64,000 nucleotides of DNA, from NCBI GenBank assembly GCA_000165425.1, contig CT868185.1:124001-188000 (forward strand), read 5' to 3'. Source of the DNA: Paramecium tetraurelia. Lineage: Eukaryota. Under the pieces are notes generated by a model, which worked only from the letters and a program-made list of their open reading frames with translations, was not told the DNA's origin and did no database searches. Position numbers and translations under genes: made by a program. Shown here one piece after another: positions 1,490 to 53,939 of this stretch (position 1 is its first letter; the number at the start of each line of letters is the position of its first letter).

Positions 1490-4433
1490 TCAAATGTTTG
1501 AAGTACTATGATTGTTTTTCTTTATTAAACTGGAGTTTTTTTTCTCACAAGGTTAAAATTTGATTTATGAAAGTAACATCTAGCTGCTTTAGATTAATAA
1601 TATTTCTCTTGAATTGATATCTTGTAAAATTCGTTTTGGATCACTATCCGTATAATCTTCCTGTTGAGTTTCTAATAATAATTTTATAGAAATTACTTGA
1701 TCTTAGATTTTTATGAACTATCTTATGCTTTCGATCTGAGGCTGATCGATCGCATTCTTAAACATTCTTGGAATTAATTTTTGGCAATGATTCATTAAGT
1801 TCATTCAAAGTCTCTAGTTTGAATTTAATATCTAATCTAAAAATGATTACTTAATATAATAACTTTTATTGTTTTTAGTCTAAACTATTTGCATTCATGG
1901 CAACCAACTTGGCAGATTTCATTTTTGATCCTTTTTATAATTGAAAATTCATAGCATAAACATCTTTTAAAATATTAGACGGTTATTTCTTTTGTTTTGC
2001 TTTATTCATTTTTTATTTTATTTTATCCTGTACTTCAGTAGGAAGAAACCCCATTCCATTAAACAAAAAGTTATTAGAAGAGTGTTCATTTTTGGATCTG
2101 AAAATATTATTTATTTTTTTATAGTTCTCGATCTCTAAAGAAAGATACTTGACAATTTCATTAGTTTTTAACAATTCTCTTCGATAATTATCCAAAAGAA
2201 ACTCCTTTGATTTGGCTTATTCTAAGAGATCATTTGTTGATCTGATATAATGTTCATGTTCTACCTATTATTCTTGCAATCTTGTTTTCTCTTATATCAA
2301 TTATTCTTAATCTAATTGATGCTAATTATTCAAATTTTCAATCTCTTGCTTATGTGTTTATTTTAATTTCTCATTCACATCTAATAGTCTTTTTTATTCG
2401 ATCTAATGTTCAACCTCCATTTATTTGATATCATCTTAAAACTTAAGAATAAGATCATTCTGACCATAGCCTACTTATTTTAATTTATTATTTAATTAGT
2501 CAATCATTGCTTAATAGATATTCTCTGAATCAAGCTACATTTAAATTTTAGCATCTTTTTCAATCAATATCTATTCTAATTTCTTAATTGCATTATCTTT
2601 TTAAATTAGATCCTCTTACTATTACCTTTGGATATCTTTCAATTTTTTTTCTTAATTAGATTCAAATACAATCTTTTGTAATTTTACTTATTCTTAGATT
2701 CCAATTATTTCATCATCCTTGCACTTTAAATGAAATTCATATTCATCCTTTTATCTAAGGAAATCATCATTTAGCTTAGCAATTTATATTTCATAATTGG
2801 ATATGACTGTAGAATCTATGATTTAATTTAAATCACATTGGATTCCAACTTCATTATATAGACACCAAGCTCCTTGTGTTACTGATAAGGACTGGTTGTT
2901 TCCAGTTAAGTGCTATTAAAATTAATCAGTATTATTGGTTCTTTGCATTTGATTATTTACTATTTTGATAAAAGGAATTGGAGAATTTTAAGTTTCATCA
3001 ACAGAAGAAGATCTTGACTATTCCTTCGATTATTACATCGATTACATCATCTCTTATTTATTATTTTCAACATATTATTCAATGGTTGTGTCTTCAAATG
3101 TAAAATCTTATTTTGATTAATATTTCCTTTATGCAGAAGAATGAATCTATGAATCTGGATTGCTAGGTTGTTTGATTGGTTCTCTTTATTTAGTTCCTTG
3201 TCTTTGAATTTAGGATTGCTTAGTTTGTTAATGGATCTTATCTGGAGATTGAGTTTTATTCTAATGTAGGTTTTATCCCTACTTTTTTGATTATTCCCTT
3301 ATTCCATATAGCCCCTTGTCTTATTTGAGTTTTTTAATCTAGTCACTAAATAACATTCATTTATACTTTAATTAATCAATTAGAATTTGTTTCTATTATA
3401 AAATGGCCTCCTTTGTTTTAAGGTTTTCATCACAAAGGAAGACTTTGTATTTCTGATCTTAGATTTCCTTCTCCAAAGCTTCAAATTAAGGTACTTATCT
3501 CTCGACTTAGTATTGTAATATTTTGTTTTTTTCAATGATGTTGAGAAATTTGGTTCTGTAGTCTGAACAATCATCTGTCAATTTTTGAATCTGATTTTCC
3601 AATTTCATCTTTTAAGATTAGATCTTATATTCATATTCGTTAATCAATATTGCTTTGTTCTCATTCAATTTGTTACTAAACATCTCCAATTATTATAAAT
3701 AAGATCTTCTTTCATCTTCAAACTTCTCCAACTATTCTTATTTTTCCAAATTCAATTACATGAGCAATTAATTCTAAATGAGAGATCTCTCCTCTAATTA
3801 ATATTTGTAATGCTTATGGATATTGCTGATTTTCTAATCTAATTGCAAATTCCTTGAGCATATATCCTCAATTTTCATTTTCTAACCATTAGTTATTATG
3901 TATTACCATTCTATTTACATTCTGTTCCCAGTGTATTGACTGTTATTTATGATATTCATTTAAACGCCGATTTTAATCTATTAATGATTGTTTCTCTTAA
4001 AAAAATCGATCTGTCTCACATTACAATTTCTCTTTCAACTATTTTATAACTATTTATAGTTTGGAATTATCATTAGTGTTCACAACAATGGTGTTATTCA
4101 GTCTAAGTATCTCCTCTACATAATTAGAATGTCATACCCTCTAAAAGATCACAAATTTATTTGAAATCAGCCACAGCCTTAACCAAAACCCTATCTTCCC
4201 CATTAGGTCCAGTATCGTTGATTAAATTGCTGAGTTACAATTTCCGCTCCTCAATAAAGAAGTTAAGGCCGATAACATGCTATTTTAATTTAGTGTTTTC
4301 GTTAAATAGAGGCTTAATAGTCTTCTAATCATACTTTAAATTATGCTTAAAATTAATTAGCATTGAGTTCCAGGGCTTTCATTTTATGATTTGCAATTTC
4401 ATCATTTTCAGGAAATTTAATTGAAGAGTTCAT
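1490..4433 (-). CDS. Large coiled-coil hypothetical protein
   Basis: ATG at 4433 (MNSSIKFPENDEIANHK); Q/E/K-rich frame in code 6; TGA at 1490-1492. Internal intron structure not fully traced. Confidence 0.7.
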
Positions 4434-5103
4434 AAATGATTTATATATATATTTTTCAAATTTATTCAGATAAATCATATTATACTTTAGGAAAGCATTC
4501 AGTTTTTAATTGTTTTTAATAAAATGTTTGTACTTCAACATTTCAAAAGCAATCAGAATAATCAAATATACTTAGATGGCTTGAAGAATATTAATTTGGT
4601 TATCAGCTAAGTCATAATATTTATGTCTGATTTATTGAAATTATATTCATTATTATTCCTTTGACTAGTTGCATATCAAGCAAACAATTTTCTCTATTTT
4701 CCTTTACTTGATAAATATGAGGAGTATATACATTTAAGTGATCTAATGTAAGCTTAAACCACATAATTTCTTCTGACAAATTACATTTTATCATCACATA
4801 CACCATTCTGCGAAGATTATCTATTTTAATCAAATAGAATTCTTAAATATTCACTCCTAATTATTTCCGTATAGAGAGAAATAATGGACAGTTTGAGACC
4901 ATGATGAATGATTAAGAGAAATCAATAAATTCTCAGTTAGTTAAGCAAATACATTCCCTTCTTACAAATGAACTTCTCAAAATACACTCTTTTTATTGAA
5001 AAATTCCCCTTTAACTGCTACATCTACATTGATACTCACCTCGAGAATTCTTTATTTTTGATTTTTAATTATTAATTTAATATAAATTGAGACATTTCTT
5101 ATT

Positions 5104-49890: not shown

Positions 49891-50126
49891 TAATTAAAAT
49901 ATAATTTATAATTATTTTCATTAAAAAATCAACTTACATCAATAATGAAGTATTCATATTATTTATCTTTTTTCTGAGTGCATTTTTGTTATTTTTAAGA
50001 TGTAATTACTCTGATGATCCGATTGATTGATGATAAGTCTCAATAATCTTTATACTATTTAATACTTTTAGGCAATAACATTGAATTATAAGAATATATA
50101 TTTATTTTAAGTGTTATGTGTGATAT

Positions 50127-51922
50127 TCATTTGGCTTTCAATCTCTCTGCTCTACATAAAGAACAACCTAAGGACATTTCTTATCCATTGGGCTTATGAG
50201 GAATTCCAAGTGGACATTTGCCTGGTCCTGGACATGGTTTGGTCATGTTAGTTTTGATGTTTCTATGACAAGGATCACAATAATGGGTTGTACCACTTAA
50301 CAAATAAAATTTAAATCATACTGACACCACCATAATGCTATTGAACAACAATGTCTACATTTGAAATCAATAAAATCAACTCCATGTTTTTTACATTTAT
50401 CTTCAAGAGTTAATAACGGACAGCATTTGGTGCATACCAAGTCTTCTTACTTGAATTCTACTTTAGGATCTTAATCTGCTGCTTATTAACAATTCTTTAA
50501 TCCTCCAAAATATGGCTTTTTGCATTTGAAGCATAAATAATAACAATAGATGTGCATAGCATAGTCTAAAGGTTTTTGATAAAACTAATGTGTAGGATCC
50601 AATAATTCTTTATCCTTCTCTTTTTCCTCTAATTTCAATCTCTGTAAACACAATTCCTAGACTTCCTTCAACAAAGCCTTTCCTTATTCAATAGACTTTT
50701 TGAAGTGAGGCACCTAGACATCCAAAAATTTGTTGCATAAAGGGCATTTCATAAAATTGAATACAATTCTAGGACCATTCCACTTGGCATCTAATTTTTA
50801 TCTTAAACAATCTTCATGGAATATCTAATTATGATAGTATTCATATATACATGTCCACAAGTAGTCTGAACACAAGGCTGTGATTTCAATCCTTCTGTAA
50901 AGCATATATTACAATAGTCATCTTCATTTTAATCCTTGGCACACTTCTCATTAAGACATGGCAAACAAGGAGTGTTCTTTAATCCTTAACAAAAATGTCC
51001 GCAGTTAAATTTAATAGTGCATAAATTTTTAGCTCTATTTTGACATTCTTATTATTAACAAATTGTTTATAATGCTTCAGGCTGATTCTTCTTTACTTCT
51101 GTGGGTTAATCACACAATCTGCATTTAACTGCTGCCTTATTGATTTTATATTCTTCACAAGTCATGTTTGTATGATAGGGTACACTCATGCAATTCCGAC
51201 ATTATTCTGTGTGACACTTTGAGCATTTAAATCGATTTTCAATATAATGTTTCAGTTGTTCTCCCTGTACTAATTTACCATTCTGATCCTAAATCTTCTC
51301 CTCTATATTTCCCTTCTAGAAACAGAATCGTTCTTTGCAATGACAGCACTCAATGATATTCTAAAGGGATAAATTGAGTTTCTCAGTTAATTGTTCATAA
51401 AGCTCCTTTCCTAAAATCTATTTAATCTCTTGATCCTTGAATCTCTCGCCACACACACAAGTAACATTGCTTTTCCTAGGTAGGAAGTCATCCTTACAAA
51501 TCTTTAACATGCAATCTTTGCAGAGGATGTGTGAACAATTTTCCAGATACCAGACTTTATCAAAATCTGAATTGGCTCCAAATTGTTTCTTGCACTTTTC
51601 ACATTAGACGGTTTAAGAAGGAGTCTTCTGCAAAATTGGCAATTATTATTGTGAATCTTTTGTTTTTAAATCGATACTTACAAATCATTAGCATCATATC
51701 CAATCTAGACAGATACACCTTTGCTTCTGCTCTCAATACTCTGAGTTAATCCAGACTAGCATTTTAAATGTCCTTTCTTTCAATATATTTCATAAATTCG
51801 CTGTAAGCACTGTAAACAGGACATGCATCTATGTGAATCTCCAGCTCTTTCTCACATTTGTAATTGCAAGAAAAACCGCAAGCACAAACAAAAGGTTCTT
51901 GGATTTATTAGAATTATTGCAT
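50127..51922 (-). CDS. Compact MYCBP2/Highwire-type RING-Cys-relay E3 ligase
   Basis: [107 protein letters not shown]. Confidence 0.9.
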
Positions 51923-52006: not shown

Positions 52007-53939
52007 TCATTATGCTTAATTAACAAATTTGTTCGGAACGATATCATCTTTGTCTTTTTCGTATACGATTTTCAATACTCCATTTTCAATTCCAAAGTGT
52101 TTCCACTTCCTTTCAAAGTTTTCAGGAATCCTGAAACTCAGAGTGAATTCTCCATATTTCCTCTCTTATTTCTTGATATGATCACTTTGCTCCTCTTAAT
52201 AGGGTTTCTTTCTATTGCCCTTGACGATTGTAACTACATTCTATCTATACATTTCAATATCTTCTTCATTGATTCCTGGGACATCCATATAAATAATGTA
52301 TTTATCATTAGCAATAATATCAGTAGCAGGTGCAAATGAATCAGGTCTGGCTAATATGAGTCCTGATTGATCAATATTTGTTTGAGGAATCTTCAGTTCT
52401 CCATCTTGTAAATCAGCCTCCATTTAAACAATTTTCTTAACAAATTAATTATCAGTATCAATTAATTTAACATTGACTTCCCTTTTGAAATACTGTGTAA
52501 GTTTACTAGTGGCATATTGGAGGATATTTTCACAAACAGAGAATTGTCTATTAACTGGGACAAAGACTGCCTTTAGCCAATACTTCAACAAAGAGAAGAC
52601 CCAAGGATTCACATCCAATCCCAATTGACTATCGTCACTGACTAAACAAACATGTCGTGTGTATTGTGTTTTGAACCAAAGAACATGTTTTTCTTGCAAT
52701 TCATTTATTCTTGGGTTGGTTGCTGCAATCTTAGTCCTTTAGATAGAGCCTCCAGTTGAGTAGATCTAAGTCACTTGGGTTGTCCAAACATGCTGCAATA
52801 TCTCAGCAGTTTCAATTTCCTTCAGATTGTGAACCACGATTATTTCTCTGAATGTTTTCGAACTATTTTAGATATACCTTGATAATCTGTCTAGATATCT
52901 CTGATCAAGGGATGTGAAATCATTTACAACGCAAATGAAATAATCGCTTAATTCGAACACTAGATCGATAATGAAGTGTTCAGTTGCTTCCTTTTCGACA
53001 ATGCTCATAGCTGATTGAATTTTAACTGGTGAGTAACTTCCAGCAGTATCAACTAAAATCAATTAGGTACCTGAATCGACATCGACGTGTTTAAATGAAA
53101 TTCCTTTGGTCGTAACCTTTTTCCCGGATGGCAAATTGGACTGGGTGAGGTTGTTCAAAACAAAGGTCTTACCCTTGTCGTACAATCCTACAACGGCAAC
53201 CGTAGCACCTTCCCATTTGATTTGGGCTTTAGTATCGTTATTGGCTAATCCAACCAATTCTTAATTGGCCTCGAACTGTTTGCTTATATAGACTGTCCAG
53301 CCTTATTGAACATTGTTTATGAGATCAATATCGAGGATCCAATCGTAAACTTGTGTTTCATCGATTCCTTCTTGAGTATTGTATTTGATTGGGTCGTTGA
53401 ATATGTTTTCTTGGATTTTGTCATTCAATTTGGATTACTCTTCGAAGTCGTAACTTGTGATGATGTTCGATTGAAGACTTTTGGATTCAACATTCATATT
53501 GTGATTGCTGTGATTGAATTGTAAGAATCTCCCAGTTTGACGTAAAGATCGAGTTTGCTAAAACTTCTCTGATGTCTCTAGATCTTTGGATAAGGTACTC
53601 ATTTGTTTCTGTAGACTCTCTTACTCTGTCAGTCTGTAATATATTCATGCACTTACAGAAGCTCTTCCTGATGAGTGATTTCATCTAAGATCATCATTTT
53701 GTCATCATTTCTCACACTCATCTCATAGTTAATCATTTCCATGATCTCATAAAGTTCTTTGATCGTCCGAGCATCTTTAGTCATTTTGTTAAATTATTTC
53801 AAAATCTCCTCCTCCTCTCTTTATATGTCCTTTAGCATCATCACTAGAATGGCTATTTTCTATTTAAGATAATTACTGTTACTTATGTCTTGTCTGCAAT
53901 CACTTTCCGCAATGGCACTTCCTGAAACAAAGAAGACAT
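52007..53939 (-). CDS. P-loop GTPase (TRAFAC, MMR_HSR1-like) fused to C-terminal HSP20/alpha-crystallin domain
   Basis: VAVVGLYDKGKT (G1), TTKGI (G2), ILVDTAG (G3), IIVVHNLKE; C-terminal PATDII..YIIYMDVPG..VKGNR..ERKYGEFTLSFRIP..ENGVLKI; two introns near the 5' end. Confidence 0.85.

Follow-up and report, generated by a model that had tools for sequence, protein, structure and literature searches.

We show that a minus-strand gene of Paramecium tetraurelia encodes a compact, 572-residue protein that ends in a complete MYCBP2-type RING-Cys-relay (RCR) module, with both relay cysteines at the relay positions. The gene occupies positions 50127..51922 of the window, by which we mean the whole stretch of 64,000 nucleotides that was analyzed (contig CT868185.1, positions 124,001 to 188,000). 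Ahead of the module the protein carries a RING1 and an IBR domain, the front two-thirds of an RBR ligase, with no RING2 found, and between these two parts lies a zinc domain shared with MYCBP2, here called zn3, which was absent from the features listed in an earlier sequence-only reading of this DNA. Taken together, sequence conservation and structural modeling make it probable, at roughly 0.7, that its product is an active RING-Cys-relay ubiquitin E3 ligase. The features on which the argument draws are the following.

50127..51922, minus strand: the whole gene, 572 amino acids under translation table 6, equal to the collected protein P0004 and covered by RNA reads
51821..51886, minus strand: N-terminal C2HC knuckle (C13, C15, H30, C34), with helices beyond it as far as residue 84
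51657..51681, minus strand: intron 1, 25 nucleotides (nt), GTAAG...AAAG; exactly these 25 nt are absent from RNA-library contigs (runs X10 and X5)
51451..51603, minus strand: RBR-type RING1, C3HC4 (C99, C102, C121, H123, C126, C129, C147, C149), with profile and fold matches to RBR RING1s
51157..51348, minus strand: IBR, C6HC (C184, C187, C225, C228, C233, C236, H242, C247), recognized by its ligands, the Pfam matches of its homologues and its fold
50941..51123, minus strand: zn3 (C259, C262, C280, C285, C293, C299, H301, C303, C311, C314, C319), a conserved Cys/His domain
50735..50913, minus strand: RCR RING, RING-H2 (C329, C332, C347, H349, H352, C355, C376, C379), aligned to the MYCBP2 RING and containing intron 2
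50825..50850, minus strand: intron 2, 26 nt, GTA...AG, interrupting the RCR RING between CGH and IFH; the MYCBP2 alignment crosses the junction
50148..50548, minus strand: tandem-cysteine (TC) domain, residues 442-566, matched to MYCBP2 in sequence and fold and containing intron 3
50489..50491, minus strand: codon of C461, the upstream relay cysteine, in the loop YFGGLKNC, aligned with MYCBP2 C4520
50324..50326, minus strand: codon of C516, the downstream, substrate-facing cysteine, aligned with MYCBP2 C4572, two bases before intron 3
50296..50321, minus strand: intron 3, 26 nt, GTA...AG, interrupting codon H517 right after the C516 codon
50265..50267, minus strand: codon of H527, aligned with the His of CxxCH in MYCBP2

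The RCR module spans residues 326-566 and is recognizable in both sequence and fold. Exon 3 alone (167 amino acids) aligns over its whole length with the crystallized MYCBP2 RCR chains (phmmer; 5o6c_A, E 4.4e-37; 6t7f_A, E 4.3e-37), the final stretch of exon 2 aligns with the beginning of the MYCBP2 RING (E 0.019), and the family profile matches the MYCBP2 RCR at E 1.6e-104. In an AlphaFold2 (AF2) model built on 51 family sequences, with a mean predicted local distance difference test score (pLDDT) of 89.9 and a predicted TM score (pTM) of 0.69, residues 326-566 superpose on residues 4387-4636 of 6t7f with Z 19.9 and a root-mean-square deviation (rmsd) of 3.0 Å over 236 aligned residues (VIA), the Z scores of the MYCBP2 RCR matches being 19.9 and 19.4. 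Foldseek returned 18 matches at E<=1e-3, of which ranks 1 and 2 are the MYCBP2 RCR (E 1.2e-21, TM 0.80 on the target) and all others are RBR ligases. The RING of this module, at residues 328-381, also scores above the Pfam cut-offs for zf-RING_5 (36.7 bits, cut-off 27.9) and zf-RING_2 (28.8 bits, cut-off 27.3).

The sequence-only reading had quoted two cysteine motifs and matched them to the relay cysteines of MYCBP2, and this proposal holds. The cysteine of YFGGLKNC (C461) pairs with that of YFGGEARC, chain residue 143, and the last cysteine of IALWWC (C516) pairs with the last of VAVFFC, chain residue 195, in the alignment of exon 3 to 5o6c_A and 6t7f_A. The structural alignment, in entry numbering, takes model residues 318..568 to 4379..4638, so that, with the indels of the sequence alignment, chain residues 143 and 195 correspond to 4520 and 4572, the two relay cysteines of MYCBP2. 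Neither cysteine stands at a zinc-ligand position in the alignment to the MYCBP2 RING-TC; alignment with zinc ligands had been named as an outcome that would overturn the proposal. The 26-nt intron that had been noted beside one of the two codons lies two bases from that of C516. The His of CxxCH, to which H527 aligns, is the proposed general base of MYCBP2.

Conservation was counted over the 167 full-length RCR domains collected here. The position of C516 is Cys in 167/167, that of C461 is Cys in 164/167 and that of H527 is His in 166/167, while position 477 is Glu in 99 and Asp in 51 (acidic in 150/167); in our protein it is Asp, with E476 adjoining. The ligands of the RCR RING are likewise retained, in 166-167 of the 167 domains. 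In the three exceptions at the upstream relay position the cysteine is replaced by Ser, Leu or Trp and the downstream one is kept; the Ser belongs to P0012 (644 aa), from a Paramecium octaurelia cluster, and the other two are P0103 and P0199 (P-numbers are labels of the collected proteins). With these three proteins nature offers test cases for the question whether both cysteines of the relay are obligatory.

The positions conserved here are those to which published work on MYCBP2 assigns catalytic roles. One review presents MYCBP2 as a two-cysteine relay whose second cysteine works with a His and a Glu, as lacking lysine activity and as selective for Thr/Ser with a preference for threonine, and it regards the crystallized RING-TC fragment by itself as the catalytic module (PMC9527308); a further paper treats C4520S as catalytically dead MYCBP2 (PMC12664034).

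The front half of the protein, residues 94-255, is a RING1-IBR unit. Its two clusters, CEKC..CSHILCKDC..CVC and CCHC..CSKCHTEQCRNC..PYHTNMTCEEY, are both located in exon 2, and the alignment of 51 family sequences displays a RING of C3HC4 type and, after it, Cys and His residues spaced exactly as in a C6HC IBR, with ligands present in 43-51 of the 51 rows. All eight RING1 ligands are present in our protein, as are all eight IBR ligands, which 50-51 of the 51 family members retain. After MYCBP2, the family profile finds HOIL-1 as its best RBR match (E 8.4e-10 and 1.4e-9), together with the RNF144A RING1 (E 4e-6 and 1.4e-4) and HOIP (E 6.4e-5). The model agrees, in that residues 94-255 superpose on the RING1-IBR of HOIL-1, HOIP, RNF216, Parkin and ARIH2 with Z 7-9.8. 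For RING1 the Z scores to the RNF144A and HOIP RING1s range over 8.3-9.8, with 9.8 to RNF144A (1wim) and 8.4 to HOIP (7v8g; rmsd 2.9 over 77 residues).

The Pfam IBR model matches 19/51 family members at E<=1e-3 and passes its gathering score in all eight of the homologues scanned separately, once each and at the corresponding place. It finds nothing in GSPATT00010577001 itself at E<=1, where RING families alone were found, so that the IBR of this protein is recognized by profile and fold only. Thus, of the HMM (hidden Markov model) scan that the sequence-only reading had proposed, the RCR RING emerges above the Pfam cut-off and the protein's own IBR lies below Pfam detection, with 8/8 homologues passing. 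No RING2/Rcat was found after the IBR, and no RBR fold alignment passes residue 256. The description of an RBR-like front half joined to an RCR module therefore stands for the RING1, the IBR and the RCR and falls short for the RING2. Further upstream, the ligands of the N-terminal knuckle are kept in 35-38 of the 51 family members, with a pLDDT of about 90. The CxC...H...C knuckle and the long helix after it (residues 57-84) belong to only part of the family, 40/222 collected proteins by a local HMM, and Pfam matched no family in the 40-residue N-terminus.

Between RING1-IBR and RCR lies zn3 (residues 259-319), a domain of about 65 residues with eleven conserved Cys/His in the pattern CRxC...VCxxxEC...CxKxLxCGHxCxG...CLPCLxxxC. 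A local HMM finds it in 198/222 collected proteins, and in 13/14 of those longer than 1200 amino acids, always immediately before the RCR. In P0089 (4673 aa), for example, zn3 occupies 4349-4410 and the RCR 4420-4671; this protein has Pfam PHR, RCC1-like, filamin and APC10/DOC domains, which make it a true MYCBP2-type protein. Judged by eye, the alignment of this stretch is convincing. By numbering, zn3 lies in such giants just N-terminal of the crystallized fragment. Its pLDDT is 95-98 in the full-length model and 83.1 when residues 252-326 are folded alone (AF2), a difference that suggests packing of zn3 on neighboring domains. The conserved catalytic unit thus appears to be zn3-RING-TC, about 70 residues longer at its N-terminus than the fragments in the PDB, and we assign zn3 to the ancestral unit because MYCBP2 also keeps it.

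A degenerate RING2 was considered as an identity for zn3 and is not supported, although small zinc domains are hard to match. The RING2-bearing chains (HOIP 5edv_A and 6sc5_A; HOIL-1 8eaz_A) match the family profile in the RING1-IBR stretch only, none of the eight homologues has a second Pfam IBR stretch, and hhalign gives 1.4% for zn3 against the IBR, with 80% for RING1 against the RCR RING as a positive control. Searched alone, zn3 reaches a best Foldseek E of 3.9 and no VIA match at Z>=2 among 48,161 chains; in the ESM Atlas it gives a weak lead to IBR-family and zf-NF-X1 clusters, at 0.76-0.80, under the 0.9 level that counts.

The gene from which this protein is read runs from an ATG at 51922-51920 to a TGA stop at 50129-50127, in a region that is AT-rich (GC about 0.32), and a single open minus-strand gene requires that TAA and TAG be read as Gln (table 6, the ciliate code). 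Its four exons (51922-51682, 51656-50851, 50824-50322 and 50295-50127) are separated by three introns, which we placed with the reading frame and the course of the protein alignment as guides, joining the exons by coordinates. The spliced join of 1719 nt makes 572 codons and the TGA, where approximately 580 residues had first been estimated, and its product is letter-identical to P0004, that is GSPATT00010577001 of P. tetraurelia, which its sources name "unnamed product" or "RING-type domain-containing protein". RNA coverage from two oligo-dT RNA-seq runs extends over 50116-51897 at a depth of 1-19 and is zero in the flanks, and all first mates lie on the plus strand, which fits a minus-strand transcript. 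Beyond the RNA contigs that lack intron 1, the loose read ends at 50824 go on with exon 2 letters, two of them variant, and those at 50295 and 50322 each run on into the opposite exon across intron 3. The gene is transcribed, and all three introns are removed as modeled.

How such a protein might work can be proposed by analogy with MYCBP2; all of the chemistry is inferred, as are the E2 used, the nucleophile and what RING1-IBR does. The RING-H2 at residues 329-379 would dock a ubiquitin-charged E2, from which ubiquitin would move by transthiolation to C461 on the mobile loop YFGGLKNC and would then pass on to C516, in the zinc-rich TC domain of the same chain. Discharge from C516 would be onto a substrate nucleophile, most likely a Thr/Ser hydroxyl, with H527 and the acidic pair E476/D477 assisting. 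Non-lysine (ester) ubiquitination is suggested by the conserved catalytic residues, and a threonine preference is put forward only tentatively. RING1-IBR would be an RBR-derived accessory without a catalytic cysteine domain of its own, which may bind a second ubiquitin-charged E2, free ubiquitin or a regulator, or may position the substrate, and zn3 would be the structural zinc domain of the ancestral zn3-RING-TC unit.

Several observations weigh against this proposal. The two RINGs in one chain leave it ambiguous which of them recruits the E2, and from residue 461 on the pLDDT of the TC domain, at 69-86 per ten-residue block, is below that of the rest of the model. The surroundings of C516 also depart from MYCBP2, around the threonine-selecting pocket: residue 517, beside C516, is His, which 15 of the 167 domains have at this position, W (97) and F (43) being commoner, residue 522 is Tyr here and Phe in MYCBP2, and about nine residues found in most relatives after CH527RN are absent. 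With the pocket so altered, a threonine preference cannot be assumed. In addition, at 14 places of the window (50247-51015) about 10-90% of the covering RNA reads have variant letters, so that some of the reads may derive from another strain or a near-identical duplicate gene; the 90%-identity cluster of P0004 includes a second P. tetraurelia member, P0008, paralogues having been counted through the protein collection. Chief among the rivals is a hybrid path, in which RING1-IBR would be the main dock for the charged E2, in an open conformation like that of RBR ligases, C461 would replace the RING2 cysteine, and the RCR RING would be structural or a second entry. We consider such a path unlikely, though it has points in its favor, as about two-thirds of the family have a conserved RING1-IBR, which superposes on that of RBRs solved in transthiolation complexes with charged E2 (8eaz, 8eb0, 5edv) and, with no RING2 cysteine found, is left without an acceptor unless the TC domain is used. 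Set against these are the MYCBP2 giants, which function without RING1-IBR, the almost invariant RCR RING ligands (166-167/167), the crystallized RING-TC, which by itself is regarded as the catalytic module (PMC9527308), and the 48/222 collected proteins with zn3 and RCR only, many of them fragments.

That the relay is not used at all seems less probable still. The protein would then be an ordinary RING E3 passing ubiquitin from the E2 to lysine, or a non-catalytic scaffold, and its cysteines would be structural. The Ser at the C461 position in the P0012 cluster, and the Leu or Trp in two others, imply that this cysteine is dispensable in some lineages, but retention of C516 in 167/167, C461 in 164/167, H527 in 166/167 and an acidic residue 477 in 150/167 domains, across very distant eukaryotes, argues against it, as does the position of both cysteines away from the zinc ligands in the MYCBP2 alignment. 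We give almost no credence to an artefact of the gene model or a pseudogene, with four exons that do not make one protein. It is true that the exons were joined by eye and that two of the three introns rest on loose read ends with variant letters; yet the join is identical to the independent annotation, homologues of other genera are colinear across all junctions, RNA covers all exons and lacks intron 1 in its contigs, and the frame is open under table 6.

The module shares with the MYCBP2 RCR (PDB 5O6C, 6T7F; PAM/Highwire/RPM-1) its RING-H2, linker helices and TC domain, at 38-41% identity, as well as both relay cysteines, the CxxCH His, the acidic residue and a zn3 directly upstream. The two proteins differ in size (about 4,600 aa in MYCBP2 and 572 here), in the pocket beside C516 (here His517, Tyr522 and the nine-residue deletion after H527), and in the RCC1-like, PHR, filamin and DOC/APC10 domains, which Pfam does not find in the 572-residue protein at E<=1 and which are present in P0089. 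It is the catalytic unit that is shared with the PHR proteins (MYCBP2/Highwire/RPM-1), and our protein is not an orthologue of the whole MYCBP2. Conversely, the RING1-IBR that it carries is missing in 13/14 proteins longer than 1200 amino acids. An alternative considered at the outset, that the upstream clusters are B-boxes already present in MYCBP2, is not borne out, since they are not seen in the 13 giants without a RING1-IBR match, which carry a different Cys/His cluster.

This other cluster is conserved in the giants, from P0030 to P0149, as CxNHDDGxT...CxxC...CxxC...LHLxxxxxxH, about 75-135 residues upstream of zn3, at the place of the compact family's IBR. It is presumably B-box-like; Pfam called no B-box at E<=0.001 in the four giants scanned, and one 336-aa fragment has a precomputed PF00643. 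A remnant of the IBR was also considered here: when the 600 residues that precede zn3 in 13 giants were searched at relaxed settings, short stretches matched the second half of the IBR model (best i-E 0.0011). We take these matches to be a coincidence of Cys patterns; the alignment shows a different motif there.

The front half has the order and fold of the RBR ligases (HOIL-1/RBCK1, HOIP/RNF31, RNF216, RNF144A, Parkin, ARIH1/2): a RING1 of C3HC4 type is connected by a helix to an IBR of C6HC type. No RING2/Rcat was found after the IBR, and the catalytic cysteines lie in the TC domain instead. HOIL-1, the best RBR match of the front half, is reported to be a transthiolating ligase that forms oxyester bonds to Ser/Thr (PMC6613137). 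HOIL-1 has a single RING2 cysteine, and the likeness, confined to RING1-IBR, is silent on the chemistry.

At E<=1e-3 the RCR core (exon 3) matches 1302 representatives of the library; 680 of these remain at E<=1e-10, and 67 at E<=1e-30. The best 150 are mostly 400-1000 amino acids long with the module at the C-terminus, and 98 of these also match residues 1-322. Local HMMs for RING1-IBR, zn3 and RCR, built from 51 of the same 222 collected proteins, find all three in 149/222 and zn3 with RCR only in 48/222, many of the latter being fragments that start at the domain. Among the 57 shorter proteins without a RING1-IBR match, 39 start at most 35 residues from zn3 or RCR and are probably fragments. 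Named relatives come from ciliates (several Paramecium paralogue clusters, Tetrahymena, Pseudocohnilembus, Stentor, Pseudomicrothorax, Protocruzia and Nyctotherus), Amoebozoa (Planoprotostelium, Protostelium and Pyxidicula), a diplonemid (Namystynia), CRuMs (Diphylleia), a stramenopile (Platysulcus) and a charophyte (Chara braunii). As judged from these sequences, the compact design is pan-eukaryotic, spread over six eukaryotic lineages, and not a ciliate oddity; to speak of a ciliate is too narrow. Some members bear further domains: P0062 (1736 aa) has Sad1/UNC (SUN) and F5/8 type C domains after the RING1-IBR-zn3-RCR core, and P0197 and P0200 (about 1000 aa) have ubiquitin-like and C2 domains added to it.

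It is tempting to date the compact RING1-IBR-zn3-RING-TC protein to early eukaryotes and to regard MYCBP2 as a derived giant that kept zn3-RING-TC and lost RING1-IBR, an idea that we hold tentatively and think somewhat doubtful. In a FastTree tree of the 167 RCR domains the giants need six label changes, two of them forced by supported branches; the tree is unrooted, leaves 50 of its 163 inner branches unresolved and gives no direction of evolution. Automatic annotation already calls a few relatives "E3 ubiquitin-protein ligase MYCBP2", and the likeness to MYCBP2 is thus implicit in the databases. Among the papers listed in the literature search, outside of which lie Pao et al. 2018 and Mabbitt et al. 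2020, none is about a non-animal RCR protein, and we found no account of this architecture, its breadth or zn3.

Next to the gene, at 52007-53644 on the minus strand and continuing upstream, lies a gene whose product joins a P-loop GTPase (Pfam MMR_HSR1, 3e-9; GBP, 8.6e-6) with an Hsp20/alpha-crystallin domain (1.8e-13) at its C-terminus, an unusual pairing.

The passages of the literature consulted present the RCR class through one protein, and the Paramecium gene offers a natural 65-kDa version with both cysteines intact. It may serve as a small, tractable enzyme with which to study the need for two cysteines and the basis of selectivity between hydroxyl and amine, with W, F or H at position 517 providing natural variation of the pocket within the family. 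In addition, zn3 may be an overlooked, unstudied part of the catalytic unit of human MYCBP2, and the shared RING1-IBR front is a possible link between the RCR and RBR classes. From the family one would expect ester-linked ubiquitination to occur in protists and a charophyte alga. If the compact protein does date to early eukaryotes, the two-cysteine relay would not be an animal invention, RCR ligases would have branched off from RBR ligases, the function of RING2 having passed to the TC domain, there would be compact enzymes with two E2 entry points feeding one cysteine relay, and hydroxyl (ester) ubiquitination would be ancient and widespread, not a neuronal speciality.

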